From Obrimoposthia wandeli (lineage: Eukaryota), in NCBI GenBank assembly GCA_977020255.1, contig CDROCS010000434.1, positions 372,001 through 436,000 of the forward strand: 64,000 nucleotides of DNA, read 5' to 3'. The notes under the pieces were generated by a model. It had not been told where the DNA came from. It worked only from the letters and a program-made list of their open reading frames with translations, and did no database searches. Every line of letters starts with the position of its first letter. The stretch's first letter is position 1. The translations under genes were made by a program, and so were the position numbers. This document shows positions 22,965 through 50,299 of this stretch, one piece after another.

Positions 22965-23155
22965 ACCGTTTTAAAAATACATACACGATATTTCACTCCA
23001 CACACGTCCACGACATTTCACTCCACACACGTCCACGATATTTCACTCCACACACGTCCACGATATTTCACTCTACATACATACACGGTTTTAAAGGGCA
23101 GTGGTACATCTCCCCGGGAGGGAGGGGGTGGATTATACCGGACATATCCACTACT
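22965..23155. mobile_element. Orphan right terminus of a Polinton/Maverick-type TIR, containing a 25-bp tandem repeat (about 3.5 copies)
   Basis: Ends ...GGGGGTGGATTATACCGGACATATCCACTACT (reverse complement AGTAGTGGATATGTCCGG), homologous to the termini at 38183, 44382 and 45997; repeat unit GATATTTCACTCCACACACGTCCAC. Confidence 0.85.
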
Positions 23156-25084: not shown

Positions 25085-25429
25085 GTAGGCTGATTATTTA
25101 CAGTTCTTCTTGAATTGAGTGTGTGCAGGGTGTATCGTAACTCCCTGCAATTTGTAAAGATATCAATAGTAGGTGTATGTAGCACTTCTGGAACAAGCCC
25201 CCCTGCTGAGGACAAAATGTCTTTGTTCTACTTTTTAGGTGACGTCATCGATGACTCATCGGACAAAGACATGACTCATTGATGACTCATATCCTTTGTT
25301 CTCCTAAAGTACACATGACTCATCACGTGTCCTCATGTGGTCATATTAAGGTCAAATTTCTCTCGAGTATACCTGATTTTCAAGGTCATGACTCATGTCC
25401 TTTGTTTTATTATACTATTTTAAGTTACT

Positions 25430-25762
25430 CATCGCTTGAGCTCATGTGCTTACCATGAGCCCAAGGTTATCGTCGAGGTCTAGGTTATGAGCTCATGTGC
25501 TGACTATGAGTCCAATGTTACTAATATATGATCATGAGCTCATGTGCTCACCATGAGCCCATGGTTATCGTCGAGGTCTAGGTTATGAACTCATGTGTCC
25601 ACCATGAGCCCAAGGTTATCCTCGGAGTCTAGGTTATGAGCTCATGTGCCCACCATGAGCCCAAGGTTATCGTGGAGGTCTAGGTTATGAGCTCATATGC
25701 TGACTATGAGCCCAAGGTTATCATAAAGTTCATGAGCCATGTGCTCACTATGAGCTCATGTC
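25430..25762. repeat. Subterminal tandem array (about 51-bp unit, TGAGCTCATGTGC..CATGAGCCCAAGGTTAT) in the left TIR; shorter copy at about 31620-31745
   Basis: Direct inspection; about 6-7 units on the left and 2-3 inverted units on the right. Confidence 0.85.
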
Positions 25763-26083
25763 ATGAAAGATAGACATCCAATCACATCACATCATCTAAA
25801 AGTATTATTAATCGAATATAAATTGATGATTATTCAAATAATGTTTGAAAAACACAATAGAAGGACTACAATCAATAGATATTTGTTCATCTATTGTGTT
25901 TTTCAAACATATTTATTGAAATTAAATCAATAAAAAATGAAACTTACTCGAGATTGGAAGCAGCAGAATAAAAATATAAATAAAAATAAAAATATTACCT
26001 GAATACTACAACTAAATCCATCCAGCATGGAATGAACTTGGAATGAGCTTGACGTACTTGTGATAATTGGTTGCGGTGAAAGT

Positions 26084-26181
26084 TTAGGGTTAGGGGTATG
26101 GCTTAGGGGTATGGCTTAGGGTTAGGGTTAGGGTTAGGGTTAGGGTTAGGGTTAGGGTTAGGGTTAGGGTTAGGGTTAGGG
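26084..26181 (+). repeat. Telomere-type array: 11 perfect TTAGGG (26116-26181) preceded by degenerate variants
   Basis: Direct inspection. Confidence 0.97.
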
Positions 26182-26256
26182 TGCTTTATAATTTGAGAGT
26201 TTCAATATGTCTTATTCATATATCCTTATATAGAACTCACATGAGATATAAACAAA

Positions 26257-26754
26257 ATGAGTAATAATAACATGCATTCATGAATACAACCAAACAAATC
26301 CTCATCAAATCAGCTGAGATTAGATAGAATATAAACAATTCAGGTGTTGACAAACATCGATAAGAAGACAGCAATATCAAAGAGGATTAATTCCATTGCA
26401 TTGAAGATAAGAATCAAGAAACAGTCTATGGATTTTATTCAACAATTAGATATCTCCAATGATTTCATCAAATTGAAGAAACCAAAATTTCAAGATTCTT
26501 ATCATAAATTTGGATGGGATATGTATTTACTCAAAAATCCTATAACATACCACTTCTCCAATCATGACAATGTAAAGAAAATCAAGTTTGATTATATCAT
26601 CAGATATATCCATGATGTTATACAATTGAATGAACTCATGCAACAATTGAATATTGGATATAAAATCCATAGAAATTATATATTGTTGAGAGCTGATGAA
26701 CGTATTTTTGCTGATTATTGGAATGTTGAAAAGGATATGAAAAATAGAAAATAG
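26257..26754 (+). pseudogene. Orphan ORF inside the non-autonomous element (137 open codons from 26344; upstream ATG at 26257 separated by two stops)
   Basis: ORF track 26344..26754 plus an in-frame upstream ATG; no recognisable motif. Confidence 0.35.
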
Positions 26755-29467
26755 AGCCTATTCATCATGATTCAAGGATTTATGACCAAATGTGATGGAA
26801 GTTTAAAACATATGGAAGATTACTGAAGGATGTATAATGTTATAGAAATTATTAATAAATATAGATGTTTTATCTTACGAATTTATCTCCTATCCACTTG
26901 GATATCATAATTTCCTGAAAATATCGTTAATTTCTCTATTTTTCTCTTCTTAAACATCTTAACCACCACGAGATGTCTCTCTACTTTAAGCGCAACTCTA
27001 TACTTTTCTTCTTAACCCACAATATTTCCCGATATTAAACCTCTTAACCACCACGTAATTTCTCTCTACTTTAAGCCCAACTCTATTCTTTTCCTTAAAC
27101 ATCTTAACCATCATGTAATTTCCCTTTCCTCTTCATAAACATCTTAACCACCATGAGATTTCTCTCTTCTTAACCCTATAAAAATAATCTATTTTAGTAA
27201 CATTGTATCATCCATTATTATTGGTTAATCTGAGTCTCAAAGATATATTTAAATAAACATGTAAGCTGATTAATAGTAACGTCACCATACCTTTCATGAA
27301 TATACATTTTCTCAAGAAGCCTTTCAATTTCATATATTGATGGGAAAATTACTGATATTACTAAAGAATCGATCAAATACTTACTAAAATCAATTTTATC
27401 ACCTACAAGAAGAAAAATCCAATATTATGATGTCATTTTCCGGAATATCAATGGATCAATGTCTACCCAACTGGATTACAATGGAATATACAAGATCTGA
27501 CCTTGTGGATTAGTGACTCCTGTTTGGAATCTATGGAATTAACAAATAAAGGTACGTATTTTCTCCTTTATATTTATTAATATTTTATAAGAAGTTCGAA
27601 AGTTAAGGATATATTGATGTGAATATTGATATTTATTGAATTAGATGATTTATGAAACGTTAGTAATGAATAGTAATATCTTAATAAAATGGTGAGAAAC
27701 TATGCTATCTTTAGAAATATTAAACCTTACCCTAGATTCAATAATCCCTAGCTACTTGATAAAATATATTAATCAATAAAATACTTATGATGAATTATTG
27801 TTAAGGTTTTATTAGGATTTACAACATGTGTTATGATATAGATGAAATATGTGCATTATCGATTATTTTGGTATAAGATTCTTTGTATGCAAGCTTGTAT
27901 GATAATCAATTTAACTTTCAAAACATCTAAGTCTTCTCCATATTTAACTATATTATCCCGTTTTATACTCTAAATCTCAATGACACATTAGAAAATCATT
28001 ATTCCTATTATCAGCCACTTTATGATGGTTGATGATAGTGAGATTAGATGTTGATAATATTGATAATTTCAGTTTTTCAATAATCAATATGTATGGAAAT
28101 ATATGAATTTATGGCATTTGGTAATTTCTCTGAAAGTTATGGATGAAAGTTTTTGAAAGAAGATTCATGATAGAGATGTTAGAAGACATGGATAGATGTG
28201 TCTCGATTTATTGAGTATTAGATTCATTCTTATAAAATTTCCATTATTTTCCTTTTACAGCCTAACCTGATTATCTAACTCAAAAGTCTTAATATCTTAG
28301 TTTTTACAACAAAATGCTTAAAGTTAAACAACTACAACGTAGAATATTTTAAACAACTGCAACGTAGAATATTTCAATCAATCAACATTGATGTATAAGT
28401 AATGTCAAATTATGAAAGTTATTTAAAAAACATCCATATATGACTGCTTTAATGAAAGAGGTAGGCTTGATATTGGTTTGATTCTATGCTATTCTTTCCT
28501 TAAACCCTAATACTTGTTATATTTTTTCCTCTTAAACCTCTTAACATTCATGAGATTTTCCTAACATCCATGAGTTTATCCTAACTACTACGTTATTTTC
28601 CTTCTTAAACCTCTCAACTACCTTGAGATTTCCCTAACTAGCATTAGATTTTCCTCTCAACTACCATGGGATTATCCTAACATCTACTAGATTATCCTAA
28701 CTTCCACGTTATTTTCCTCCTTAAACCACTCAACTTCCACGAGATTTTTCTAACTACCATGAGATTATACTCTAACTTCCACGTTATTTTCTTTCTTAAA
28801 CCACTGAACTTCCACGTGAGTTCCCTAATTCTCTTCTCGAACCATCTAAATATCGTAAATTTCCTGAACATATCATTAATTTCCTGAATACATCAATACT
28901 TTTAGAACATAATATAGAACATATACTTGTTATTATGATAAACAATATCGATTCGAATTGAAAAAGATAGAGATGTAATGATTAATAATTAGAGTTTTGT
29001 ATATACGTTGTATTTCTTGTAAGTATTCAGACATAAATGCATACACACACCCAATAGTCTCTATATTCTGTTTTTCTTGTTCTGTCAGCTTGTAAATTTT
29101 TGTAAGTATTCACACACACACAATATTACTATAGTCTATTCCCTGCTCAAGCAATCTTCCAACAATTAGAAGGAATTCCAGTGGATTACTATACTCCAAT
29201 TTCTCTCAACTAAGTTTACTATATGTGTTTGCTTGTTCAATCAATCTTCCACCAATCAGAATACACTCCAGTCGATTACTATTCTCCATCCTTCTAAGTA
29301 TGTTTGCTATATTTGCTATACGTTGCCATAAATACCCCGTTGATATTTAGTATCTACTTTAGCTATAATTTTCTAATGATAGTAATACATAACACTTTGT
29401 AAGCATGATAAAATCGATGAATACAAGCTATATTGATAAATTATTACGAATAACCTTAGTAGTCTTA

Positions 29468-29694
29468 TGATATATATATATATATATATATATATATTCC
29501 AAGATTCAATTCTACATTAGAAATATCAATATATTAATTGAGATTTAATATCTATAACCAATAACATGTAGAATATTGATCTATTTTTAATTTCAGTTTA
29601 ACATCTGATATTAAATAGTTTCTTTAGGAAACATTAGATGAGAAGAGAAGATGAAGTTATGAAGAGATAAGATGAAGTGATGCCTACATTTTAG

Positions 29695-29727
<33 letters not shown>
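29468..29727. repeat. Two (TA)n microsatellites (about 29468-29497 and 29698-29727)
   Basis: Direct inspection. Confidence 0.9.
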
Positions 29728-29733
<6 letters not shown>

Positions 29734-30229
29734 ATGATATAGCAAAATCACAAGTACTTGTAACCATAACAAACATATATTTGAATTTGCAGGCATTGAA
29801 ATTGATGCATTAAAACAAATTTTTGATATGATGTACTAAAATCATTATACATGAATAGCTTTACACATGTAATTAGATATCTGGTAATATACATAAGCTT
29901 TATTAAACACATGCATACCTGATTAAGCTTTACATACAAACATACACACACATACATTCATGATTAAGCTTTATTATATGCGTGCAAGGGATGTCATCTG
30001 ATGTTTTTGTTAATCTACTAGTAATCAAATATGCTCACATACATACATACATACAGTTAATTATGTTTCCAAGTGTCAACATCTGTCTAATTATTCACAC
30101 ACATATGTATGAGTGATGTAAACAAATGGAAAACATATTAAATGAAATTTACATAGCTTAGTTTAGGTAAATAAATTTTGTAAATATTTTATTACTTTGT
30201 TTTAAAAGTAATTGATTTTAAAGTAATAA

Positions 30230-31030
30230 AGTTTTGAATAAAATAAATTTTTGAAGAAAATAAGTTTTTGAAGAAAATACTTTTTTGAAGACAATAAGTT
30301 TTTGAAGAAAATACTTTTTTGAAGACAATAAGTTTTTGAAGAAAATACTTTTTTGAAGACAATAAGTTTTTGAAGAAAATAAGTTTTCAGGAAATAAAGT
30401 TTTGATGAAAAAATTTCACAGGCACAAATTTTCATGTACAAAACGTTTTTGGTGAAAATGATGTACAAGTGATTTAAAAACTTTTTAATTTTGACGCCAA
30501 AAAATTTTGAAAGTTAAACAAAATTTTTTGAAAAAATAATTTTTAAACTTTTTGGAAAAAATATATTTTTGAAGGTTTTGGACCCTTGAATGTGCACCCT
30601 CGAAGGTATAATCAAAGTCAGATCAATGCTATTATATATAACTTTGCAAAGTAGAAAAATAAAAAAGTTTGAAGATTTTGAACCCTTAAAGGTTAAGCGT
30701 CGAAGGTCTGACTAAGTTCTAGTCAAGTCCATTATATATAACTTTGAAATGTAGAAAAATAAATTTTTTGAAGGTTTGAACCCTTGAGGATTCCCCCTTG
30801 AAGGTTTTAGATCCTCTGAGAGAACCCTAATCGAATAAGCATATTAAAGAATAAGCTCAAAGTAGCAACTCGAAGAATCAGCAATAAGAAGTACCTTAAA
30901 AGAAGCAACTCAGAGAATTTCCTTAAAAGAAGCAAGTCAAAGAACTTCCTTTAAAGAAGCTACTCAAATAACTTCCTTAAAAGAAGCTACTCAAATAACT
31001 TCCTTAAAGAAGCAGCTCAAATAACCTGCT
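30230..31030. repeat. Cluster of tandem repeats: TTTTTGAAGA(C/A)AAT units, about 105-bp units (30560-30810) and about 27-bp AAAAGAAGCTACTCAAATAACTTCCTT units (30880-31030)
   Basis: Direct inspection; unit sizes approximate. Confidence 0.75.
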
Positions 31031-33169
31031 CAAAGAAGATCCATCAAGAGTGAGTAACCATGTGCTCATAGTCGTTGTCCTGAAAGGCTCATGTCCTCAA
31101 CATGTGAAAGAAAGGAAATAATTCACAAAGCACATTACGTGTACAAATGTTGCAAATAAGAGTAATTATTTGTAATTATTTGTAAATCACACACTCACAC
31201 AGTCACGTGACATTTTCATCACATCTGTGTGAGTGTGTGATTTTCTCTTCCCTACTGTACACTCCAATACAAGGCAGATATTTTCGCTGCCTTGTATTGA
31301 AGTATGTGTGCGGTTAATGCCATCAGTTGATGATGGCAGAATCGCATCACTCTACTGCTGAATTGGATTTAGCTGCTGTATTCAGGTAAATTTTTTATTT
31401 ATATTTATATTTTTATTCTGCTGCTTCCAATCTCGAGTAAGTTTTATTTTTTATTGATTTAATTTCAATATATATGTTTGAAAAACACAATAGAAGAACA
31501 AATATATATTGATTGTTGTCCTTCTATTGTGTTTTTCAAACATTATTTGAATAATCATCAATTTATATTCAATTAATAATACTTTTAGATGATGTGATGT
31601 GATTGGATGTCTATCTTTCATGACATGAGCTCATATTGAGCACATGGGCTCATGAACCTTATGATAACCTTGGGCTCATAGTCAGCACATGAGCTCAAAA
31701 TCTTATAATAATCTTGAGCTCATGGTAAGCACATGGGCTCAAGCGATGAGTAACTTAAAATAGTATAATAAAACAAAGGACATGAGTCATGACCTTGAAA
31801 TTCAGGTGTACTCGGGAGAAATTTGACCTTAACATGACCACATGAGGACACGTGATGAGTCATGTGTACTTTAGGAGAACAAAGGATATGAGTCATCGAT
31901 GAGTCATGTCTTTGTTCGTTGAGTCATCGACGAGTCACCTAAAAAGTAGAACAAACACATTTTGTCCTCAGCAGGGGGCTTTGTTCCAGAAGTGCTACAT
32001 CTACCTACTATCAATTTAATAAAAGCAAAAGATATTTATACTAAATAACGATTTAAATGACATTTATGTAATCAATCCAACAATTTCCCACCTAGAAACA
32101 AATACACTGCTTCAAATGTCTGAAATATAAACGTATTATTAAGTACATAGCGCAATATAGAATTGCAATGGATACAACTAGGCTATTTAAAACGTCAGTA
32201 AAGGTAGAAATAACCGGTTAAGATCCACTTATAAAGGTTCCAATGTTACCAAGTCAAATTAAAGGCGAATTTCTAGAAACTGAATTAAAGGTTTGAGGTC
32301 AAATTACTTGGGTCTGTCTGTATGAACTCAAGTGTATGGTGCTTATTCAAAATACAGAGGTAAATACGAATTATTGCCGTGCTGTCTTGCGATTAGTGTC
32401 GCAAGCTCAGAATTGATCTACTAAGCTGGGGAAGAAAAATCAGAATCATCAATGACCTTGACGAGGTTACAAGTAGACGGTCGTCTAAGCTGATGTGCCT
32501 TCTATTTCTTATCATTATCAGCAAATATCGGCGTCATTCACGCTCATTGCGCTCTAATCGCATCACTGACCCCTGCAAACTGGAAAATCCAATTTTTCCC
32601 CCAACCCAGGGAATTTTTTCACCCAGCTGTCTGAATATAAAACATTTCGAGGGAATTTTCGATTTTTGTTTTAAGGATAGGCTTTTCCTGACTATCGCAA
32701 ATGTAGACTACTAATATAAGCGATTTCATACAGTCAATGGTAATACAGTTAAATGTGAGGTAAGATAACATCAAATAGCATACTTCTATCTCGCGCCATA
32801 TTGATGATCTGATGATCACACATTATTCAAAGTCCATTAAAATACATGAACTTGATGGCACGCAATTTATTGTAGCTTGAATTTGATGTCATAGAAACTC
32901 TTCGTCGTGTTTTGCTATGAAATCACTAAAAATCGCCTTTTATGCTTACTGATCCGGTGATTAAATCTCCAGACCGGATGTGAGGATAATTGATCGGTAT
33001 TGAGATTTTATAAAATTGTCAAGTGCGGTTAAATTATTTTCATTTTGACTCTATTAAAATTGCTCAATTTTCTCCCTCGATTTCTTATAACTAAAGCATG
33101 ACAAAAATTTATAATGATCGACTGATAAGTATAGAATGATTAAAATGTAAATAAACAATGAAACAATGA

Positions 33170-36000: not shown

Positions 36001-36209
36001 AAATATTATGAAAAAAATGAAACACATGAAGCGATTTTCAATAATAGATCAGAAATTTATTCGATATTAACGCTATATATTAAATATATTAAGGTTAGTG
36101 TTGTTATTATGAAACTGACGCTTTATTAAATATGTTATAGTAGAACTTTTTTTTAAATCTATGATAAACATTTATAAGTATGTAATGATCCGACGATTTC
36201 ACTGTACAG

Positions 36210-36470
36210 GAAATTGCTTCTGAAGGTGAGCGCAACGCCTCTGTGGCTCTCAAAGAGGCGAGCCTGTTGCTGAACAACTCTTCCACTGCGATTCAGTTAC
36301 GCTACCTTCAGACGCTGGTCAACGTATCGAGTGAGAGGACATCCACAATAATCTTCCCTCTGCCGATAGGCCTCATGGAGATGCTCATGCAGTCAAAGAG
36401 GACTCCAGTAACCGCAAAGAAAACTGCTACACCAATTCCTGAGTTCGACAAATCGAGAGACAGTAAGTGA
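36210..36470 (+). CDS. STOM-like: Stomatin/band-7 family gene, terminal coding exon
   Basis: gtacag|GAA ATT GCT...TAA encodes EIASEGERNASVALKEASLLLNNSSTAIQLRYLQTLVNVSSERTSTIIFPLPI..., the canonical stomatin C-terminus (LQLRYLQTL..STIIFPLP). Confidence 0.95.
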   Translation, partial: EIASEGERNASVALKEASLLLNNSSTAIQLRYLQTLVNVSSERTSTIIFPLPIGLMEMLMQSKRTPVTAKKTATPIPEFDKSRDSK

Positions 36471-38327
36471 AATTGAAGATATTCTTGAATTTGCTTGTTC
36501 ATTTCTGTTTTGTTCGACAAACAGTATTCTCAGTATTATATTCATAGTCAGTTCATTGACAATGACTCTACACAACTTAATATAATTTTTGGAAATTCTG
36601 ATAATTGACATTTTGCTTCTGTGATCCCTAATTGACTTTGGACCATAAGATTTAATTGATGTTGCTTAACTATTCGAATCTCTTAAATAATCTGATATTG
36701 TCGAATGATGTCTGTTGAGCTTTATGCAAATGCTTTACGAACTTTGTACACATATTTATAAGAATATTCATTTCTTATCATCAATTAAAAATGTATTATT
36801 TTGAAGAAACATCTTGTCTAAAAAACATATACAAATTTCATACTCATAACAAAGTCACTTTTGAAAATTTTATAAAACTGTCTATACAGTTTTGAAACTT
36901 TACAATTACGACAAAAAATTAAAATTATTAAAAAAGTAAATATAATTGATTTTTTTAAATCAATATTTAGAATTAATAATGCATATAAATTATAACGAAA
37001 GTTATAACGTTATAAAAGAAAATACAAGAGTTATTTATATTTTTTTGTGCTTATATAGTTTTTCAACATGGTATATAATTTATATTTATGTAGTCACAAT
37101 CTGTTTAAGTTTATTTTTTCTATAAATATGCTTATTATATTTCTATATTTTGTACTTCAAAATAATTCAAAATAATTAATATTAATAACTTTAGGTTAAT
37201 TTGTATGAAACCATTATCATGACTTATTTATTAATATAACCTAAATGCAAAAGTGTCGAAAAAGAATTCTTTCAAAACCAGTTTCAATTAAAATTTTAAC
37301 CATTCAAAGCATTTTAACAATATTAATTCTATGCTTTTTTTGAAGTTTTTACAGTTATTTAACAGTAAAGAATGATAAATTTGATATCTTATAAATATTT
37401 GCTTTTTGTCAAAAATTGGATATTTTTACATCCAGAGTTTCCCAGATGGGATTATTCCTTATACTAGTAACATATACTATAAATCTATTGATAGCTTAAT
37501 TTTCATGGTTACGTTTATTATTAGCTAATTTTATTCTATGATATCTTAGAGGTTCATGATTAATAATTGATTGAAGTTTTTCTATAGTGATATTCAATTT
37601 TTATTTTCACAATATTGTTTTCTGCAATTATTTAAGCTAAAACACAAAAATAGTACATGTAATTTTTTTTATTCTAACAGTAGTTAAAAATGACAACAGT
37701 GCAGTAACTTTTTAAAGAATTCAGGGGTGAAAACTGACCGAATTCAGCAAGACAAGAAATTTCAAAACGACCTCGGATTTCAAGAACATTGAAGAAACAC
37801 ATCTCTTCATTAAGTTCATTTCATTTGAGTTCTAAAGTGAAATGGCCGTGATATTAGGTCCTGTATGCTGCACATTTTGAAGCAATATCCTGGAAAGAAG
37901 TTGGAGGATGGTATGACTCAGTTTCTTCTGCGTGATGTCAAGGGAACGATCAGAGAGATAGATAAAAGTTGCTCTATCCTAGATCTCTACATCCACGACA
38001 GACTGGGAGCATGGGTTGATTCTATTGGAGATCGTCCGTCTGCGTTAAATCATCTCTGATTTCAAATTTCACACCATCGTTGCAATTAACTATCAAAGAG
38101 ACTCAATTTTGCTACAATACATTCAATTCTTGCCTAACTGATAACGTCATTAAACAGTAATACGCGATGATTATCTACCTACAGTAGGTGGATGTGTCCG
38201 GTCTAATCCACACCCCCTCCCCCCTGTCCTTTAAAACCGTGCATGTGTGGAGTGAAATTTCGTGTAGGTGTGTGGAGTGAAATTTCACTCCACACACATG
38301 CATGGTTTTAAAGGACAGGGGGCCTCG

Positions 38328-38840
38328 GGCTCGAGACTGGTGTATATCACAGACTTCCTTGGGTGATGGGCGAAAGGCTCGGAACTGGTGTATATCACAG
38401 ACTTCCTTGGGTGATGGGCGAAAGTCTCGGGACTGGTGTATATCACAGACTTCCTTGGGTGATGGGCGAAAGTCTCGGGACTGGTGTATATCACAGACTT
38501 CCTTGGGTGATGGGTGAAAGGCTCGAGACTGGTGTATATCACAGACTTCCTTGGGTGATGGGCGAAAGGCTCGGAACTGGTGTATATCACAGACTTCCTT
38601 GGGTGATGGGCGAAAGTCTCGGGACTGGTGTATATCACAGACTTCCTTGGGTGATGGGCGAAAGTCTCGGGACTGGTGTATATCACAGACTTCCTTGGGT
38701 GATGGGTGAAAGGCTCGAGACTGGTGTATATCACAGACTTCCTTGGGTGATGGGCGAAAGGCTCGGGACTGGTGTATATCAAAGACTTCCTTGGGTGATG
38801 GGCGAAAGGCTAGGGACTGGTGTATATCACAGACTTCCTT
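38328..38840. repeat. 48-bp tandem array (about 11 units) next to the left TIR
   Basis: CTGGTGTATATCA recurs every 48 bp from 38337 to 38817; variants repeat with a 4-unit (192-bp) period. Confidence 0.95.
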
Positions 38841-39049
38841 CGCAATACATTGACTTACATAGTCAAGACTCATCGGTGGTGAGTGAATGAGAAGCAGCAG
38901 CAAGAGCGGACCTGTTGGAAGAAGAAGCCTCATTGGCCAGCTCAACTCCAAGAGAACAACTAATGGACGTGAGAGGCGGGGTACAGAGATCCCAATATAT
39001 TGACCTGGCAAGTCAGGATTCGATGGAGAATTGGGGAGACTGTACTAAT

Positions 39050-39774
39050 TTTTGAGCTAATTTTCGAAATTCGAACATATTCGTTTTTCTTATATTTAGC
39101 TTTTTTAATATTTTCTTTTTTTATTTTTGTCCATCCAAATATCAATAGAGTTTTTATTAGTAACATCAACAGGTCTCATTCCCTCATGTTCAGAGTGATT
39201 ATATGCATGTATTATTTTAGGTAAAACTTAGATTCATTTTTTATTTCCTTCTTTTGTGAAATACATTTTTATTCGATCTCTTAAAGTACAATTAAATCTT
39301 TCTACTACTGCTGCTTTGTACTGTGAAAACACAGAGTAGTGATTTATATTATTTTGTTTAAATAATTATTGAATTTGCTGATTATAAATTTCTTTTCCTA
39401 AATCAGTTTGCACATTTTGTGGAATGTCCTCTTTTAATATTTCTTTAATGGCTTCAAGCATAGCTATTGAAGACTTTGCTTTAACTGGAATTGCACGAGC
39501 AAACCTGCTAAATACATCAATACATGTTAAAATATATCGATATCCCTTATTAATGGAGAATATGGTATCATCTCCATCAAATCCATTTGCCATAAATTAT
39601 TAGGACCGCTGGTTTTGTAAGCTCTAGTTGGAAACTTTCTTCTCATCGGCTTGTTCAGACTGTAGGCTAACTGATCGCTTAGCCATTTCTGCATTTATTG
39701 GTTATTTTGTTTTGTTCATTTTGCTAATTTTGAAACTCCTGTGGGTCTTTTGGATTGAACCATATCTTCTCCAT
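39050..39774 (-). pseudogene. Polinton retroviral-like (rve, DDE) integrase, frameshifted and 3'-truncated
   Basis: MEKIWFNPKDP..; KPMRRKFPTR..NNLWQMDL; GYRYILTCIDVFSRFARAIP; QNVQTDLGKE; KAAVVERFNCTLRDR; AYNHS..GMRPVDV; KYKKNEYVRISK; several stops and frameshifts. Confidence 0.92.
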
Positions 39775-39860
39775 TACAACAATTTGAATAGAAAGAAAAT
39801 TTAAATTTAGGTAAAGAAGGGTTAGCACCCATTTCTTTAGCTGATTTTTGAAATAATTGT

Positions 39861-40190
39861 TTATGTATGTGTCGCAGCTATAATACTACTGATAATTGAA
39901 GCAACAACTGGAATAACAGCCCCTATGAAACCACCATTATGTTTAAGAATAATATTTCGTTTTCTTTTTTTACTTTTTACATTAGCAATATCTAGAAGAG
40001 TTTTTCTATATTTCTTTTATATATTTTTCCGATTTCCAACTTTTACTCGTCCCAAAACTATATTATACAAAACTTCCAATAAATCATCTACAACAAAAGA
40101 TGGAAATGCTTTAGGAATAATCATTCTCTTATGAGAAGAGGCTTTGACTAAAGCTTTAAAATAGGGTATGCTTCTTTGTATTTTCTTCAT
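39861..40190 (-). pseudogene. 109-codon basic protein ending in GG-F plus a hydrophobic helix (adenovirus pX-like architecture); one nonsense codon at 40017-40019
   Basis: MKKIQRSIPYFKALVKASSHKRMIIPKAFPSFVVDDLLEVLYNIVLGRVKVGNRKNI*KKYRKTLLDIANVKSKKRKRNIILKHNGGFIGAVIPVVASIISSIIAATHT. Confidence 0.7.
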
Positions 40191-40221
40191 TTTAATAAAA
40201 AAGGTTCAATTTAAATATTGT

Positions 40222-40362
40222 TTATATTCGAAGCCATTTAAGTTTTTTTTTATTTTTAACTACAGATTTGATTAATTTTTTCACTTCTTTTTTCTTAATG
40301 ATTCTTTTTTTTGATTTCTTAGATTTTACTTTACGTTTTACTATCAACTTTGTAAAAGGCAT
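40222..40362 (-). CDS. 46-aa Lys-rich protein, putative DNA-packaging core protein
   Basis: MPFTKLIVKRKVKSKKSKKRIIKKKEVKKLIKSVVKNKKKLKWLRI; 22 of 46 residues K/R; sits tightly between the ATPase stop and the next ATG; below the ORF-track cutoff. Confidence 0.55.
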   Translation of the reverse strand: MPFTKLIVKRKVKSKKSKKRIIKKKEVKKLIKSVVKNKKKLKWLRI

Positions 40363-40369
40363 TGCGAAT

Positions 40370-41017
40370 TTATTTTTTATAATTGTTCTCTATTTGTTTA
40401 TAAACAGTTACTCCCTTAGAATTAAATATGTCTGTTAAAACACGTAAATCATCTGGGCAAGCTTGTGTAAAGTCAATAAATATATACCCATGTGCTTGTT
40501 TAGCAGCATCGTGGAATGAATCAACTAGAAAGTTCTTATTTTGAGGAAATGCCTGTCTGGCCACAAAATCAACAACTGTTTCATCTCTAGGATTTTTAAA
40601 TAAAACTAAGTAATGTACATTAAGATTTCTTGTTCTATGGTAACCTCCTTGGTGAAAAAGATTTTGAGTGATAAATATAACTGTTACTTCACGATGTCTT
40701 GCAATCTTTGTAAATAAATTATTAAAGTCCGATTTCTTGTTAGCTTCCTGATACAAATCATCAATTATTATTACATCTTCTTTTTTCAATCTTTCGCACC
40801 AATTTGCATCAAATCCTTCAATAAATTTTATTCCCTTCAACTTGCAAACTTCTGTTTTGGTTAATCCGCTTTTCCCTCCTCCACCATGATGCCAATAAAT
40901 ATTTTTGAAACTAGATTTGAAAATAGATTCATTTTGCAACAATTTACATACGAAATGTGTCTTTCCACTTCCACTGGGACCAACTATTTGAAATACAGCA
41001 TTATTATTTAGCACCAT
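40370..41017 (-). CDS. A32/FtsK-HerA-like genome-packaging ATPase of Polinton type (intact, 215 aa)
   Basis: Walker A GPSGSGKT, Walker B VIIIDD, ARHREVTVIFITQNLF and LVLFKNPRD motifs. Confidence 0.93.
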   Translation of the reverse strand: MVLNNNAVFQIVGPSGSGKTHFVCKLLQNESIFKSSFKNIYWHHGGGGKSGLTKTEVCKLKGIKFIEGFDANWCERLKKEDVIIIDDLYQEANKKSDFNNLFTKIARHREVTVIFITQNLFHQGGYHRTRNLNVHYLVLFKNPRDETVVDFVARQAFPQNKNFLVDSFHDAAKQAHGYIFIDFTQACPDDLRVLTDIFNSKGVTVYKQIENNYKK

Positions 41018-41054
41018 TGCATATACTCTTTCATTTTTAATATTGTTTATATTA

Positions 41055-41326
41055 TCATAGAAGTTTCTTTATTGAAATGTACAATGTTAGAGCTATTGTA
41101 GATGAAATAAAAAAATTAATTATTGAATATTTGGCTATAATTTTATTTATTTGTGTACGATTTCTAAATTCTCGAATAACGTGTGATCTAACCAATATTT
41201 CAATGTTATTACTTGTTATATCATTATTTTTTAATTCTGATAAAATTTCTTTACCCCTAATTTTCCAGAAAATATTTCGTCGGCAAGCCGATCCACTTCA
41301 TTGTCTCTATTTATAATATTATTCAT
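41055..41326 (-). pseudogene. About 90-aa orphan protein with a C-terminal hydrophobic segment; one frameshift
   Basis: MNNIINRDNEVDRLADEIF / WKIRGKEILSELKNNDITSNNIEILVRSHVIREFRNRTQINKIIAKYSIINFFISSTIALTLYISIKKLL*; fills the gap between the TBP-like gene and the ATPase. Confidence 0.45.
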
Positions 41327-41354
41327 TTGAGACAATAAGTTTAAACGGGTTTGT

Positions 41355-41855
41355 TTATAGAAAAGATAACAAGATGTAATAAGATATATTTTCTAAAATC
41401 AAATCAACAATGTATGGATAATCAAAATTTTTCAATCCCAATATCATAACTTTACCACAGGAAAATATATTTACACATAATGGTTTAAACTTCAAATAAC
41501 TGAGAGCAGAAAAAATTTCTGGTTCAAACATGCATTCTTCTTTTATTTTCTCTGCAGTTTTAAAAAGATTTATCTGTTTCCCAAGATTAGCCGAAATCGT
41601 GATTGATTGTATTGCAGTGATTCAAATTCCAAATGGTAAATTGAACCCAAGCATTGGTATTTTGCATCCCATAACACGACAATTTCCTAAAGAATTCAAT
41701 ATGAAAATAAAATAAAAAACTAACCTGTAGGAAAAATAACAACTGTGAAATTTTCAAAATTTTTCTACATATTGTCTCGGCTTCCATTCATTGAATGGTA
41801 AGTACGAAACATCATCTTCTGTTCTACCTTTATAATTTATATTTACGAGTTTCAT
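41355..41855 (-). pseudogene. TBP-like: TATA-binding-protein-like gene carried by the Polinton; two exons (41855-41725, 41686-41355), one frameshift (about 41758) and one nonsense codon (41622-41624)
   Basis: Reconstructed MKLVNINYKGRTEDDVSYLPFNEWKPRQYVE(K/N)FENFTVVIFPTGNCRVMGCK...*ITAIQSITISANLGKQINLFKTAEKIKEECMFEPEIFSALSYLKFKPLCVNIFSCGKVMILGLKNFDYPYIVDLILENISYYILLSFL shows both TBP repeats (cf. LQNIV..NPKRF..ALIFSSGKMVCTGAK and IQNIV..YEPELFPGL..LLIFVSGKVVLTGAK); 38-bp GT..AG intron at 41724-41687. Confidence 0.85.
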
Positions 41856-42071
41856 TAGACTGAAATTGTATTCTGTAAAATCTTCTTTATATATGTCTGA
41901 ACCTGCTTTTTTATTGCACGTTTCTTGTAATTATCTTGCAAACCTATTATAATTGGATGATATATTTAGTCCAATCAAATTCAATGCTTTTGTTTTATTA
42001 ACCAATGAGATTCATGTTTTTGTTAGAAATTAGTATAAAAGAATGCGCCATTGGAGGACAAATCACAGTAA
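41856..42071. promoter_or_regulatory. Divergent promoter region with TATA box and CAGT initiator on each strand
   Basis: Minus: TATATAAAG 41893-41885 and TCAGT 41863-41859 (TATA T to Inr A = 32 nt). Plus: TATAAAAG 42034-42041 and CAGT 42066-42069 (33 nt). Each is just upstream of an ATG. Confidence 0.65.
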
Positions 42072-42548
42072 ATGCATTCATATCAAAGACAATTATCAAC
42101 GATGGACGATAGCCAACGGGTATTAAGCGATGACGAAGAAATGTTTGAAGAATCGGATAAGGATATGTATGAAGAAGTGAAACAATATTTCAAATACAAA
42201 GTCAGATTCTTGAAGAAGGCTCAGCTGATTGCTTTAGTAAATCCTGTGACAATTGAAAGAAGAAAGTTCAGCTACTATCTATCAGGTATTCAAAAACCTG
42301 ATTTTCAATATCTTAAACAGAAAATAGAAAAGGCAGTTCCAAATTTTACTTTCAATAAGAACGAATTTTATATCCGAGGAGCCGATGAAGCATTTCTAGA
42401 TGACTATGGAAGATATGTTGATATTGATGCGTTTCCGAAAAAGAAGCAATGGACTCTAACAATTCGACTTTATGGTTACAAGAAAGATGAAATGGGAACA
42501 AAGTTGCCTATGTGGAAAATTGAACGTGCTCATATTTCTATGTTTTAA
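42072..42548 (+). CDS. 158-aa orphan Polinton protein, paralog A (acidic N-terminus)
   Basis: Intact ORF with TATA/Inr; aligns along its length with the ORF at 43333-43737. Confidence 0.75.
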   Translation: MHSYQRQLSTMDDSQRVLSDDEEMFEESDKDMYEEVKQYFKYKVRFLKKAQLIALVNPVTIERRKFSYYLSGIQKPDFQYLKQKIEKAVPNFTFNKNEFYIRGADEAFLDDYGRYVDIDAFPKKKQWTLTIRLYGYKKDEMGTKLPMWKIERAHISMF

Positions 42549-43059
42549 CTTTTGCTTTTAATAAATTGTAATCGGTTTTACTATGTTTCTTTCATTTAAT
42601 AATCAGTTTTATTTTTTAAATATTTGTATCATATATGTATTTTACTACTTGTACTTTAGAGCAACGCTCTGTGAACTGGCCGCAATTTTAGAGTGAAGAC
42701 TCTAGCGTCAACCAACCCTAAAACCTAAAATCGATACGTGGTTCATCCCCACTGGTGTAGAGACTTTCAGAAGTTTTAGGAATTTTACTACAACTTCTTA
42801 GAAAATACGTACGTAAACGTATTGTTTTGTTTTAGTCTAGTGTGTTAACAATAAACGATTTCCTACATTAGAAAGCATTGTTCTAAAAACCTTCAGATTA
42901 AGAGACATCGAAAAACAAACACCTTCAGATAAGCATTGAGACAGGCAACCATAACATTAAGTAGGCCACAACCATCTACAAGTCCTGCTTCTATAGAACT
43001 CACGTTGGGGCCCTCTACAGTCAAGAGGATCTATAAGTTTCATATAGAAACCTAAAAAC

Positions 43060-43293
43060 AAAAGGAAGCAATGGACTGTAACAATTCGACTATATGGTTA
43101 CAAGAAAGATGAAATAGGAACAAAGTTGCCTATGTGGAAAATTTAACGTGCTCATATTTATATGTTTTAACTTTTTTCTTTTGCGTGTAAAAAAATTGTA
43201 ATCGGTTTTACTATGTTTCTTTCATTTGGCAATTAATAATCAGTTTTATTTTTTCTAATATTTGTATCTTATTTGTATCTTATATGTATTTTT
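43060..43293 (+). repeat. Direct duplication of about 42438-42643 (3' end and trailer of paralog A)
   Basis: Near-identical GAAGCAATGGACT..ACAATTCGACT..ATGGTTACAAGAAAGATGAAAT..GGAACAAAGTTGCCTATGTGGAAAATT.. and downstream AT-rich trailer. Confidence 0.9.
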
Positions 43294-43332
43294 TTATAAA
43301 CATTGTTTTTTAATCAGTTTCCTTATTTTAGA

Positions 43333-43737
43333 ATGGATAAGAGATGTGTAGCAAATTTTTATTATCCAGAAAGAATTTCAAAAGAAAAACTATGTAATAT
43401 ATTAAAGAGGCATCAAATTATATGAGTTATGAATCCTGTGAAAATATCAAAAGTGGAGAATAAATATCTCATCGAAATTTTAACAACATCTGATTTTGAT
43501 CAATTGAAAAATATTTTGGGATTTTACATTCCTGATTATGTATATGAAGGAAATTGTTTCCAGCTTGAAACTGATCCCAGTCTGGATTTTAAAGATGATC
43601 TAGGATATTTGATTGCTCCAATTTTAGATGAAGAACTATGGAATATCTCAATACGTCTCAATGGATATTTTGCTGATGACGGGAAAATGCAGCCTCTTTG
43701 GACTTTGAGTGAAGCCAATATGTTGTTTTATGTTTAA
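43333..43737 (+). pseudogene. Orphan Polinton protein, paralog B (134 codons, one nonsense codon at 43423-43425)
   Basis: MDKRCVANFYYPERISKEKLCNILKRHQII*VMNPVKISK...LWNISIRLNGYFADDGKMQPLWTLSEANMLFYV. Confidence 0.7.
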
Positions 43738-43869
43738 TAAATGTTTTGAAAAATAATTTTGACTCGTATTTAGTTTTTTCACCTCTAAATTATATAGATC
43801 TGACCGTTTTTTATCCTATAAATTCTAAAACTGACATAGATATTTAACATGTAAGGATATTTGATCATT

Positions 43870-44184
43870 ACTTTCACCCATCACCCACCGATTTTCACCC
43901 AACACCCATCGACTTTCACCCAACACCCATCGACTTTCACCCATCACCCATCGACTTTCACCCAACACCCATCGACATTTACCCATCATCCAACGACTTT
44001 CACCCAACACCCGTCGACTTTCACCCAACACCCATCGACTTTCACCCAACACCCATCGACATTTACCCATCATCCAACGACTTTCACCCAACACCCGTCG
44101 ACTTTCACCCAACACCCATCGACTTTCACCCATCACCCGTCGACTTTCACCCAACACCCATCGACTTTCACCCATCACCCAAGG
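43870..44184. repeat. 21-bp tandem array (15 units) next to the right TIR
   Basis: ACTTTCACCCA(A/T)CACCCATCG units, followed by one inverted copy of the 48-bp unit. Confidence 0.95.
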
Positions 44185-45996
44185 AAGTCTGTGATATACA
44201 CCAGTCCCGAGCCTTTCGCGCCGACAAGCGACAAATTTTTTTTGGGGACCCCCCCTGTCCTTTAAAACCATGCATGTAAAACTCCACACACCTACACGAA
44301 ATTTCACTCCACACACAATCATGGTTTTAAAGGACAGGGAGGGGGGAGGGGGTGTGGATTAAACCGGACATATCCACCTACTACCTACAATGCATGTAAG
44401 TAAGCCATCGTGCAACTTACAGCATTCAATCAGAAGTACTTTCAGTTAATTTGCATTTATAAATGTTTAATTTATATTTAATTGTATAATAAATCGTATA
44501 AAAACAATATGCACCACTATCGCTCAGCGGATCTGCCATCTTCGATGAACAACGTTACTACGACTGAAGACGAAGGCAGAAGGGATCCCTCGACCCCATC
44601 AACACCGGCCTTCAGTGACCCTGGCAATACTTCCACTTCTTCAGAAGATCATTTTCCGGTGGCCACCAGCTGACTTGGGAGTAGATCTCACAGTCAGACA
44701 GAAAGAGAAGAACCCTGAGATATTCTATTTCTTTCATTAGTTTACTTTATGATTGAGATTGAGTGGACCTTATTCATTTCTGTGTGGTTTGTGGCTCAAT
44801 AAGTGCAAAGATATAGCTTTGTGTTGATAGACAGAAGATTTGGGCCGACAAAATGCAGATATGTCTGCTCAAAAAAATGTATTTGACATTTTTTTTCAAA
44901 TCCCATTTTTTTCTGGGATATCTATTGTATATAATTTTTTAAAGATAATGTAAATTGTAAGTTAAAATAACTATAAAAAATCATTTAATGTAGCGCTAAT
45001 ATCTAACAATTATATGATTTATTACTCAAAGCGCTGTTTGTTTTCCATTGTTCTTCGAAATATTTTCTGAATAGTAAAGTCTTCAGCTACATTGTTACAG
45101 ATTCGTATATCCATTGATAAAATGTAGTAAAGACTCAGAGCATAAATTACAAATATTATATCAATCAGTTTATTGTTTGAGAATTCTCTAATCAATCTTC
45201 GTTTATCATTGTTTTTCGTTAGATGCATTTACATGCTCACAGCATCAGATTCGAGAAGATCATATAAATATTTGGGTTTCTATGAGAGAATATATTTTTT
45301 TGAAAATAAGTTTTATCTTTAATTCAATTTTTGTATTGATCAGTAGCCAATGTAGTTTCATTAAATGTACACATAGTAATAAAATAATTACGATTTAAAA
45401 GCGTTGATTGTTATTTATTTAATTAGTTTAAAATTATAACTGTTACGAAATTGTTTAGCCATTTTATATTTTTTTTGATAAAATAGCAATAAATTTACAT
45501 CATTCATTATTCGATTACCAAATAAAAAAAATTATTGAATTTTTTTTTAATTATGAAGTTCAATGAAAGTTGGTTTCATATCTGAAAATCCGTAAGACCT
45601 GAATGGGTAAAATTCAACGATTTCAAAAATGCTTTTGACTAGCGAACAAGAAAATTCTGACAGGAAGTTAACAGTAGATGATAAATGTAAGAGAAGACGT
45701 AAATCCTCTTGAGAAGTCGCCAGAAGTTCAGATATAAGAATTGACCATATATGTGTTTGGTGATTAAAGCAACATTCAAGTTTTACATATGCTGTAATGC
45801 AGAAACAAATAAAACTTACACAACATAAAATTTCCAAGAAACTTATGTTAAACTTAATTGTACGGCTGATAAAGTTATCTTATTTATATTCCTGCTGGCT
45901 ATTAATATTATTAGAACGACTTGCAAAAAATTGAAAATTTTCTGATTTAAATACATACATGGGATAATGGTTTTGGATGCAAATTTTTATAATGGT

Positions 45997-47310
45997 AGTA
46001 GGTGGATATGTCCGGTCTAATCCACCCCCTCCCCCTCCCCAGGGGCTACCACTGTCCTTTAAAACCGTGCATGTGTGTGGAGTGAAATTTCGTGAGTGTA
46101 TAAAAATATATACATGTCCTGAGACGTGTATACACTTTTCAACTGCACAAGTGCAGTTTACTGGCGGTGGATGGTACGGTGGTCAAGGTGGGAAATGAAA
46201 TTGGAAAATTAAGTGCATGGGATACTTGAATTCAATCAAGAACGAATTCGAGTAGGTCCATGCGCTTCCTGGCTTACCATTTAACTTCAGAAATTCATCA
46301 ATTCGTCCGCACTTGTGCCGATCGTGCCATACCAATGCACTAAATCCCTATATATGACTGAAATATATAAAGTAACCCATACGTGTTTTTTCTATCTCTT
46401 CCCCACCCCAACACTGTAAAAAACTATTTAACTTAACGCTCTTTAAAATTGAAAATATCATAGTGCTCCCACAGAGTGAGGAAGTACCTGAGAGGCCATC
46501 TAAGGGCCAACGCGTCTTCCCATTCAATTAGAGGGAGGTTTGTCAGCAACTATAGAAAGAAAGAGGCGAGGACAAAATCTTAATAAGGTCCTACCAAAGA
46601 AACGTAGATAAAACGGTGCTACTATAGCGTGTCACCTAAATAATAAATATATTATAGTTAAGGTGCCATTAAGAAATATATTTTTTTAATAAACGTAGGT
46701 GTAGATTCAAATATTGAAAGTAGTTTAAAATCTGAAGTTACTAAATTAGCTCAGGCTAAGGTTCAATTTTGCGCAACAGTACAGTTTAAAATGTCAATGA
46801 GGAGTCTAAAACTTGGGTAATTTCACATAAAGCAACTGTTTTTTATGATAATTTTGTAACTGAAATTGGAAGAAACCTGGATGAAAACATTGCTAATTAT
46901 AGCGAGTTAAGTAGTGGATGGACTCTAGTTAGAATTCACGATGTTAGCTTTGTTCTAACAAAGTTCACTGACATGATATATCTTTCGGGGAGTTCATACA
47001 TTCCTTCACCTAGATCTCTTCAACTTTCACGTTCCATTGTTAACGTACAAAACAGTGATAACCTTTGCTTTCTGTATAGCGTGTTGGCCATCCTCAAAAG
47101 GGATGTAATTACTGAGCACAGAGAGCGTGTCAGTAAATATACCCCTTTTTTAAATGAATTGCAGTATCATGGAATAGATTTTCCTGTTAAATTAACTGCG
47201 ATATCAAGATTTGAACATCTTAATAACTTGAGTATTAATGTATTCAAATATAATACTGATATCCCAGCTAATGGAACAGATGAAAAACGTTTTAAAAATC
47301 CTTTTATTAA
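45997..47310 (+). mobile_element. Truncated Polinton: left TIR (45997 to about 46100) plus the 5' part of a pPolB-type gene (about 46690-47310)
   Basis: Starts AGTAGGTGGATATGTCCGGTCTAATCCACC; downstream NYSELSSGWTLVRI...LSGSSYIPSP..IVNVQNSDNLCFLYSVLA..FPVKL..FEHLNNLSINVF, typical of the N-terminal region of animal Polinton pPolB; no right end found. Confidence 0.8.
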
Positions 47311-50299
47311 ATAGGCGAAACAATTTAATTTTTTTTTCTACAAATATCAGTATTTAGGACAATTTTCTTTGAACTGACGTTTGAAATTTTAATGCTGAAA
47401 GTATTACAGTATTTTCGCCAATATCAACTTATATAAGACAATTTTTTAAACCTTTACTTTTATACGCAAATAATATTTGAATTGAAACTATTTGCTTATA
47501 TTTCCATATGTTCAGCAAAACAAAAAATAATTAAAAAAACAAACATTTAATTGAATTAGTACAGTAAAACAAAAGTTTGATAATAATTAGGTCACGTGAA
47601 TATTTTAAAAAGATTACTCGTAAGACAATTTAAAAACTTTAACAAAAAAAATTTCCAAAATTTATTTTTTTAAAAATTGCGATTTTTTGGGCGAGAGAAA
47701 ATGTAATTTGGTATAAATACACATGTTGAAATATATTCAAGGTTTTAAAAAATATTTAAACTCCATTTCTGATGAGGAAATCATGAGTATTAATCAGAAC
47801 AAGTTTTGACTCAATATTTACAGTTAATAACAGCATCATCAAAACCCAGAGCATGTCTGAAAATTTGGTTTCTCCCAATTAGATAATGAGTATTAATCAT
47901 GTAATAGTACAGTGATGGTTCCCGATCTTTGATTCAGAAGACCCCCTTGGTCATGAGCTGTGAGTTATGAGTCGGACCCTTATGAGCAAATGTCTTGACT
48001 TTTGGCACCACTGATAAGGGTTAAACTTATAACCCATATCTCATGGCTCAGGGTGCTCTGTTGAGTCCATGAGTGAGAACCGACACGTTACACTACTGAC
48101 ATTTGATTTACCATATTGAAATTTGGTATTTTGCACTAACCACTCTAGAAACTAACTCCAAGGAGGCATCGAAATCGTTATTCTCTATTTTTACATGCTT
48201 GGTCTTTGAAATGGCACGCCTGTCTGATCTCGAAGTACACAAGGAAACCAGTGATTCGTCCAAAGAACTTTCAATGGCACTTCAAAGCCAATGTATTTTC
48301 TATATCTACATCATCATTTTCATCTTAGACATTGATTATCATAAATGAGCAAGAAAACTTTGATCGAACACTGCAATTTTTTTCTATATTTAGACTAGGT
48401 TTTACTTTTTGCAAAAACACAGTACTTACACAGTACTTCACTGTCACTGCTTACTTCACAATTAATTTCATTTCTTGATATTATGATAGAAAGTTATAAT
48501 GTAGAAAACATATTCATCAGACATTACCGAATTTCTAAATTTTTAAACCGTCATAAATGATGTTATAAGTGTAATACAACAATATTTTTCAAAGAACTTC
48601 ATTAAATTAATCTCACAAAATAAATAAAATGTCTAACAATCAAATTTTATATCGAAAAAAATAAATAAAAAGAAGCAAGTATTATTTAGTGATTGAAGTA
48701 AAATTCTACCCAAACATAAATTACAACAACTTTTCCGAAAATAGGTTAATATTTAAAATCGATCATTTATAACATATTTTAAATCTTTTTACAGTTAACT
48801 AAATAATTTCACCAGATTCAAGTATTGCTAAACAATATTCTTTGTAAATCTGTTCTATGCGCTAATAAATAAACAAATATGCGATGTCATTGTCATGTTG
48901 TGGCAGTCAAATTGCAGTAGTTTGTGCAGTTGATTACTGTTTATGACGGTATGCGAATTATTTAATCAGTGCTGATTATTGTACTGCAGTGTCTAATTTT
49001 AAACTTTACTTCAATTGGTTCATATTAACGATCTCACAAGTAACTTTATTACTTCAATTCTTACTGCAAACCTTTGAATTTGTCGAATGATGAGTGAAAA
49101 TCACTTTGAACGGATTCTTTAGTTCGGGAATATTTTATGTGATTATTTTACGTTGATTTAAACTGCAATGGACGATAACACGGCAGCATCCAGTGAAAGT
49201 GAAGATGATGTGAGTAGCCATTATTTTAAAATTAAAGTAGTTTCTTTATTGATACTCATATGATAATTTAATTAATATAACCCACTTTTAATTCAAGTCT
49301 ATTTTACAATTTCCATTTCATATGTCGAAATTTTAAATGTCATTTCTGTACTTTGAACTCTGTTTAATTAATCTGCAGGATGCAGAATTTCTTTATGTAT
49401 CTTTAAAACATTAATATTCGCTTACAGCATATTAAAAATGAAGATTTGGACAAGTTAGAATAACTAATATGGATGTTTCTTACAAATCCGGGAAAACTAT
49501 GAAACAGAATCAGTAACTGTTAATTTTCTGTTTGATCGCCATTCCCGTGTTTCTCTTCAAATATTTATCGCAAGATTAATGTTATTGGGTTGCTTTACAT
49601 TATTTATAACAAAATACCAAAAGAAAAATAAGTGAAAGATAAAATGACAATTTTGTTTTCTCAATTTCAGCTAGTGATAGAAAAATGTTCCTCTAATAAA
49701 TATAAAAAACTTTCTTCTTGTCTGTTTTCATGGAAGATAGTTTCCTGATGTTATTAAGTCTTTGTCAAAATTTAAATATTTTGTGATTTTTAACTTATTA
49801 ATTATCATTACATCATATGTTAATAAATATTGATTTAAATACTAGAAGAAATATTTACTTTTCAACAATGTGATTTTCTTGTTTTGAAAGAGTCATTTAT
49901 AATAAAACAATAAGTGGTATTGTATTTAAAAAATGTTGAGTTATACGTTGGCAAAAGTTTTGTTTAAGATTTATTTCATTTTGTTTATTCCATGTAGACT
50001 TGGATAAACTAAAAGATATAATTTCAGATTGAAGTAGTCCTGTATTTTAGCGATGGCATTTGTTTAAACTAATTAGAATTATCGAGCCTCAATAGTACTA
50101 TGGAGGGGATTGAAAAATAGTGCGATTTTGTACGTGCTTGCGTAGGGACATAAAAAATTGATTTTTTCGACGAAAATTGACTATTTAAATAATTATTTTG
50201 TTGATATCCAGAAACGACAAAGCAATGTTTAAAAATAGCTCTTTTATAGTTCTGGTAAAGTGAATTAAAATTGAAGCCGAAGAAATAATCTTAAGACCC

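Follow-up and report, generated by a model that had tools for sequence, protein, structure and literature searches.

The stretch of DNA analysed here (the window, 64,000 nucleotides of contig CDROCS010000434.1 from the Obrimoposthia wandeli assembly GCA_977020255.1, forward-strand positions 372,001 to 436,000) contains a 6,200-bp element with several hallmarks of the Polinton/Maverick class: AGT-type terminal inverted repeats (TIRs), a 6-bp target-site duplication (TSD), a broken rve integrase, and an A32/FtsK-like packaging ATPase (Table 1). The element opens with AGTAGG at 38183 and closes with CCTACT at 44382. An earlier note on this sequence had described AGTAGG termini and a perfect ACCTAC duplication; both are present, and when direct flank repeats of 4–11 bp were tested, 6 bp was the only length that matched, with a chance probability of about 6e-4. 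Between the TIRs, only the ATPase gene, a Lys-rich peptide and one of two genes for predicted single-stranded-DNA-binding proteins (SSB-A) remain open. The integrase, a TBP-like gene, a membrane-tailed open reading frame (ORF), a gene for the so-called GGF protein, and the second SSB gene (SSB-B) are all broken.

Table 1. Features of the 6,200-bp element and its immediate flanks (window coordinates)
Feature	Position	Strand	Evidence or remark
Left TSD, ACCTAC	38177..38182	.	Flank comparison
Left outer TIR, AGTAGG terminus and subterminal hairpin	38183..38322	+	Hairpin arms 38220-38249 / 38293-38322
Array of 48-bp units, ~11 units	38328..38840	+	One unit recurs in right TIR
Inner left segment, low-complexity frame	38841..39053	+	One stop at 38888; sequence of the family, deeply covered in host-sample contigs
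rve integrase remnant, cut near 39054	39054..39774	-	Pfam rve 2.1e-6
Small MG...CC ORF over integrase start	39716..39832	-	Kept in relatives
GGF protein, adenovirus pX-like tail	39861..40190	-	Stop at 40019; Adeno_PX 0.0023 (weak)
Lys-rich peptide, 46 aa	40222..40362	-	Open
A32/FtsK-like packaging ATPase, 215 aa	40370..41017	-	Open; Pfam Pox_A32 1.5e-6
Small membrane-tailed ORF	41055..41326	-	Frameshift near 41260
TBP-like gene (~145 aa in relatives)	41355..41855	-	Broken near 41756 and at 41624; PF00352 E 3.7e-10
38-nt GT-AG putative intron in TBP-like gene	41687..41724	-
SSB-A, 158 aa, predicted gp2.5 / giant-virus-type OB-fold SSB	42072..42548	+	Open
Partial duplicate of SSB-A 3' end	43060..43175	+	110/116 nt identical
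SSB-B	43333..43737	+	Stop at 43423; 27-28% identical to SSB-A
Array of 21-bp units, ~15 units, and one 48-bp unit	43870..44219	-
Right outer TIR with hairpin and terminus	44251..44382	-
Right TSD, ACCTAC	44383..44388	.

The outer TIRs, each about 140 bp, align with 121 matches, 5 substitutions and 4 gaps between the arms. One 48-bp unit is common to both sides (55 of 57 positions matching), and the internal arrays differ between left and right, in unit length (48 against 21 bp) as in unit number (about 11 against about 15). Across the arms as a whole, 7 of 183 aligned bases are substituted, or about 2% per arm. All five substitutions in the outer TIRs (38183–38322 compared with 44251–44382) are transitions, several of them at CpG-like sites, a pattern that suggests methylation-driven decay. 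A post hoc observation concerns the duplicated hexamer (38172–38189, 44376–44388): reverse-complemented, it reads as element bases 2–7, and of the last 11 bases up to the left junction, 10 agree with the right end of the element itself. Chance could account for this likeness between hexamer and terminus, as could a preferred target or insertion into an old end.

All of the genes listed in the earlier note (TBP-like, membrane-tailed, ATPase, Lys-rich, GGF, integrase, and two rightward ORFs) are present, with Pfam matches among them, but most are broken, and that inventory had missed the MG...CC ORF, the partial third copy of the rightward gene, and the putative intron of the TBP-like gene. The integrase changes frame near 39742–39774, 39551–39557 and 39106–39117, has stops at 39718, 39697, 39368, 39236 and 39230, and has lost about 93 of 348 residues at its 3' end, the last quarter of the protein, including the chromodomain; as it now stands, the window copy could not be a source of integrase. 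By position, the GGF protein would correspond to PZ or GasderminX and the Lys-rich peptide, found at the corresponding place in 13 of 16 loci checked, to PM. The inner left segment is probably the start of a lost pPolB-side arm, a placement made without a homology match: its frame, compared with the PolB leaders of relatives, gave none (best E 0.77). The earlier note had recognised no pPolB or capsid genes, and profiles built from close relatives likewise find no penton, PW, capsid or PolB within 38183–44382. These same profiles pick up relics in a much worse state at other places in the window, and a comparison of the element with the ORFs of 44 relative loci (below) gave no match beyond the genes already listed. 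Autonomy calls for pPolB, capsid proteins and a protease inside the TIRs, and the window copy does not carry this set.

Compared with its relatives, the window copy lacks 6.8–8.5 kb, beginning 93 residues before the integrase end. The stretch occurs in five public sequencing runs: four derive from a single sample, and the fifth, X5, is a marine metagenome from another study; contigs were compared over 38840–43860 in four of these, three host-sample runs, which together represent one sample, and X5. At 39054, 86, 118 and 95 contigs in the three host-sample runs diverge from the window copy, and their loose letters read as integrase. A contig match in X5 likewise starts at 39054, and this junction, with its continuation into integrase, is the best supported of the loose ends listed. 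The junction is therefore real, and many copies exist without this deletion. The window copy also differs from the X5 contigs at 86 of 2,960 bases (2.9%), and it has decayed privately, since another letter carries nearly all contig depth at each of the 40 substitution sites listed. Together with the TIR divergence, this distance from X5 fits decay in place after insertion. The TSD and the truncated integrase bear out the earlier reading of the element as a Polinton deletion derivative that entered by an integrase-type insertion.

The organization of the lost interior is suggested by relatives. Among 1,813 candidates, 793 proved homologous to the ATPase, with up to 75–80% identity in the best and nearly all of them unnamed metagenomic proteins, and a metagenome scan recovered the 44 relative loci, with ATPases 71–78% identical in the colinear ones. 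A GGF gene follows the ATPase in 33 of these loci, with an integrase in 25, a TBP-like gene in 14 and an SSB homolog in 7—counts drawn from a set in which many loci are too short to show more genes and several are near-duplicates. Two long loci, L025 (13.9 kb) and L017 (12.9 kb), carry the order SSB, TBP-like gene, (membrane ORF), ATPase, Lys-rich peptide, GGF protein, integrase, penton-like gene, PW-like gene and capsid, facing a pPolB; here the pPolB was recognised from motifs by eye, and the penton and PW labels follow position alone. A penton-like gene is next after the integrase in 13 of 13 loci of >2.9 kb extending past the integrase stop, several of them near-duplicates. The relatives' capsid model (pLDDT 67) matches the double jelly-rolls of PBCV-1, iridovirus and mavirus, with a best E of 8e-17 to PBCV-1, and the protease is a Peptidase_C5 in locus L029. 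It is in these relatives, not in this host, that pPolB, double jelly-roll capsid and protease are linked to the same cassette. The relatives' PolB has no PF03175 match at E<=0.01; IMG/VR scans with the ATPase, an ATPase alignment and a capsid alignment yielded no confirmed relatives, and the terminus pattern matched none of the 44 loci. L025 additionally carries a ubiquitin-conjugating (E2) gene (L025:225-719) and two tandem penton-like genes (L025:5616-7684), and the pPolB of both L025 and L017 contains an Endonuclease VII / HNH-like insert; such an insert is described in the pPolB2 of nematode and oomycete Polintons (bioRxiv 2023.08.22.554363).

Judging by this shared gene order, what had been called an unusual cassette is one ordinary arm of a full-length Polinton. 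The earlier idea of a preserved regulatory or accessory module is not supported: the genes occupy core positions, and the long loci run on into the penton-like gene. Given that the genes of vertebrate Mavericks are arranged in two runs, atp-pm-pz and int-mcp-pw-Mcp-pro (PMC8097293), the segment from ATPase through Lys-rich peptide and GGF protein to integrase would, by position, be core rather than accessory. The suggestion of a possibly undescribed family has fared better: the parent clade appears undescribed in the literature searched.

This family is apparently very abundant in the host. Over the 5 kb compared, the three host runs contain 167,240, 284,907 and 273,930 contigs, and their summed depth is 56,000–180,000 times that of long unique contigs, a measure that should not be taken for a copy number. 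After correction by a factor of 31, assumed as the worst case of contig overlap, and a further factor of 2 for ploidy, about 900–2,900 remain, which suggests, as a rough lower bound, at least ~10^3 family copies. The same 5 kb contains about 1,960 distinct joints. Nine of the 15 joints listed were scaled; in the deepest run they stand at 15–45 times the depth of unique contigs, and three recur in all three runs. The joint 41313–41883 (31, 26 and 15 times unique-contig depth in the three runs) skips the whole TBP-like gene and probably marks a TBP-less subfamily; the joints 41431–41489 (20, 18 and 10 times) and 42609–43259 (45, 61 and 30 times) also recur in each run, and the joint 40428–42459, which removes the ATPase, reaches 35 times in one run only. 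It follows that deletion variants of this family can reach multiple copies, and the helper-dependent form proposed in the earlier note stays plausible for the family, though unproven for this copy. With ~10^3 copies or more and a wealth of deletion variants, such a host would offer a direct test of whether Polintons spread within a genome as transposons with helper-dependent derivatives or solely through viral reinfection.

We consider it probable that the window copy is a dead, internally deleted copy of an abundant, autonomous, capsid-encoding, adintovirus-like Polinton, and that its deletion is unique or nearly so. The parent of this copy would have had the layout seen in relatives (SSB, TBP-like gene, membrane ORF, ATPase, Lys-rich peptide, GGF protein, MG ORF, integrase, penton, PW, capsid and protease, facing pPolB) and would have been copied by protein-primed strand displacement, in which the SSB, to judge from its fold, would cover the displaced strand; the TBP-like protein, again by its fold, would act at the promoters of the element in its transcription. 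An intact rve integrase would have inserted the element with the 6-bp duplication observed here; a single deletion of ~6.8–8.5 kb, during or after insertion, would have brought the 3' part of the integrase up against the inner left end; and the copy would then have decayed in place by ~2–3%. On this reading the 6.2-kb layout is one result among many of deletion and was not selected as a module. The presence in the same window of a second TSD-bounded derivative, 6.8 kb long, of another family and with different gene content, counts in favour of this reading, and 96% of vertebrate Maverick loci are degraded (PMC8097293). The TSD is no proof of satellite transposition, because it is equally expected if the deletion followed insertion. 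Several observations nonetheless weigh on the other side. Among the loose ends listed, for which counts were saturated, the left segment contributes no strong counterpart, and copies sharing the 39054 junction may exist; several other deletions stand at 15–60 times unique-contig depth; damage is concentrated in the integrase, with the ATPase and SSB-A left open, a distribution less even than purely neutral decay would give; and the full-length parent is known from relatives only, not from this host.

Non-autonomous Polinton families, such as the zebrafish family Polinton-1N1_DR (in which the "N" denotes non-autonomous), consist of intact ends around a deleted interior. The window copy resembles them in its retained ends and deleted interior, while amplification of this particular deletion is unproven. 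It is possible, if rather unlikely, that, in line with the earlier note, the window copy belongs to an amplified non-autonomous subfamily, its deletion having arisen once and the 6.2-kb form having since been copied and inserted repeatedly by helpers' pPolB and integrase acting on the TIRs. As for an autonomous helper with matching TIRs, one may exist in this genome: other copies carry on into integrase, and a near-identical terminus at 45997 leads into a pPolB fragment. Both termini and their hairpins are retained, other deletion joints look multi-copy (three in all three runs), two TSD-bounded derivatives of 6–7 kb lie within 64 kb, and the zebrafish family is named in print (PMC9341505). 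However, the best-supported loose end listed lies at 39054 and reads on as integrase, the window copy is privately decayed at every one of the substitution sites listed, the recurrence across runs comes from one sample, and the multi-copy joints could be segmental duplications or small deletions in otherwise autonomous copies. A more ambitious reading, which we regard as doubtful and offer tentatively, would combine these elements: an undescribed aquatic-animal Polinton clade with its own TBP (with an intron in one branch) and a gp2.5-like SSB, of which one family has reached thousands to tens of thousands of copies here, well above the vertebrate maximum of 287, with helper-mobilised deletion subfamilies that include this 6.2-kb element.

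The depth in the host sample could instead come from replicating free virus and defective genomes, with the window copy one of a few integrated relics. Contigs cannot separate episomal from chromosomal DNA, the marine metagenome of the other study covers most of the stretch at depth 1–23, and relatives encode a full virion module. We find this explanation improbable, given that long contigs only 82–88% alike sit at one uniform low depth, as expected of old genomic copies, and that five Polinton relics together fill ~18.6 kb, or 29%, of the window. An assembly chimera joining the ends of two neighbouring copies is more improbable still: high-copy families do mis-assemble, no single contig spans the stretch, and the duplicated hexamer resembles the element's own end, but an exact 6-bp duplication has the low chance probability given above, and the two TIRs are only a few percent apart.

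Beyond the history of this copy, the TBP-like gene merits attention. Of 150 candidates, 133 are homologs of its protein, which resembles TBPs of archaea and eukaryotes and keeps the two-repeat PF00352 saddle, the first repeat being shortened; the gene is clade-wide in these Polintons, and its product is predicted to bind DNA. At the codon position of the 38-nt GT-AG segment in the window, locus L003 carries a 40-nt GT-AG segment of different sequence, and such a segment is absent from 13 of the 14 TBP-bearing loci. Two GT-AG segments at one site, with lengths that are not multiples of three, indicate an intron. Simple decay had been considered for the stop near 41756 and the extra TBP residues and was rejected, part of this sequence being the putative intron shared with L003, and no deep 38-nt joint standing among the best-supported joints listed. 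Starrett et al. (2021, PMC8502044), where they treat non-animal datasets, name TBP-like genes for MELD viruses in their Fig. 5 legend; in the literature searched, TBP occurs only in figure legends of that article, and one of its supplements lacks the term, while figures, subscription papers and bioRxiv supplements may bear on the point. If animal Polintons of this clade regularly carry a TBP-like gene with a spliceosomal intron, control over nuclear transcription may lie with the small integrating virus itself. A TATAAAAG box lies at 42036–42043, just upstream of SSB-A, in the divergent spacer between the TBP-like and SSB genes.

The two rightward genes, previously termed orphan paralogs, are not orphans, and a fold can be predicted for them. 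The SSB-A model (pLDDT 95.5), compared with 48,161 chains, gives T7 gp2.5 at Z 7.7 (root-mean-square deviation 3.3, 110 aligned), DUF2815 at 7.6, Enc34 SSB at 7.3 and African swine fever virus (ASFV) CP312R at 6.7, with the next match at 5.7; the top four have deviations of 3.0–3.4 over 105–123 of 128 aligned positions, and Z values below 8 are moderate. Foldseek likewise places CP312R and Enc34 SSB first in the PDB, but at E 0.05–0.1; at E<=0.001 it returns 21 viral proteins, of which those with names belong to giant viruses. In the Atlas, SSB-A falls near Nucleocytoviricota clusters in which 10–12% of members carry DUF2738 and Pox_I3, with a low recognition score. The family comprises 108 representatives at 50% identity; Pfam on 85 members and a hidden Markov model search of PDB sequences returned nothing meaningful, and a word-based homolog search with SSB-A confirmed none of 13 candidates. 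As a predicted fold, the gp2.5-type OB-fold SSB is well supported, and binding of single-stranded DNA would be the corresponding function. SSBs of this type are described in phages and Megavirales in a survey (PMC4889955) that, in the portion available, makes no mention of Polintons, and no SSB is reported for Polintons in the literature searched, where figures, subscription papers and bioRxiv supplements may bear on the point.

The window copy and its relatives share with vertebrate Mavericks (Barreat and Katzourakis, 2021, PMC8097293) the 6-bp TSD, AGT-type ends, TIRs, the two gene runs and a mostly degraded state; they differ in having both runs on one strand facing pPolB, an AGTAGG rather than (AGT)2 end, and TBP-like and SSB genes with a putative intron, where vertebrate Mavericks are reported to lack introns when intact and to reach at most 287 copies per genome. 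With Beta adintoviruses (Starrett et al., 2021, PMC8502044) they share an FtsK ATPase, rve integrase, hexon, adenain and a pX-tailed protein (here a weak pX match), and a PolB without a PF03175 match, a likeness drawn from the published description. The Beta class is described there as having a divergent non-PF03175 PolB with an OTU domain and GasderminX and cupiennin genes; in the parts available, TBP appears only in the Fig. 5 legend cited above and SSBs are not mentioned. SSB-A resembles the T7 gp2.5, ASFV CP312R and giant-virus SSBs in its modelled OB fold, its top four structural matches all belonging to this group, and differs in its compact 110–130 aa core and 11–14% identity. Massive Polinton expansion is known from the Mavericks of Trichomonas vaginalis (>30% of the genome; bioRxiv 2023.08.22.554363), a protist, whereas the present host appears to be an animal and its copy number is a rough bound only. 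What is new, then, appears to be the gp2.5-like SSB fold, the TBP-like gene with its putative intron and the apparent abundance in the host; the copy itself is a fossil of a known kind.

Several further features lie elsewhere in the window. The second derivative, of another family, spans 25168–32009 (6,842 bp), with AGTAGG ends, an ATCAAT duplication and TIRs of ~650–860 bp (618 matches, 35 mismatches); it carries an SSB-like remnant (26458–26799), a TTAGGG-type run (26107–26180) and no other recognisable gene. At 45997–47311, a left terminus nearly identical to that of the 6,200-bp element is followed by a pPolB N-terminal fragment (46787–47308), and its right end is absent from the window. 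Positions 6743–10855 contain an older relic in heavy decay, with integrase, a penton trace and pPolB, and a lone related right terminus with an AGTAGT-type end lies at 22979–23155. An ORF at 36189–36470, 1.7 kb left of the element, has no Pfam match and presumably resembles the last exon of a stomatin/band-7 host gene. A 183-aa frame without identity lies at 23731–24957, next to a 471-base N gap, and a hAT-like transposase fragment at 60333–60707.

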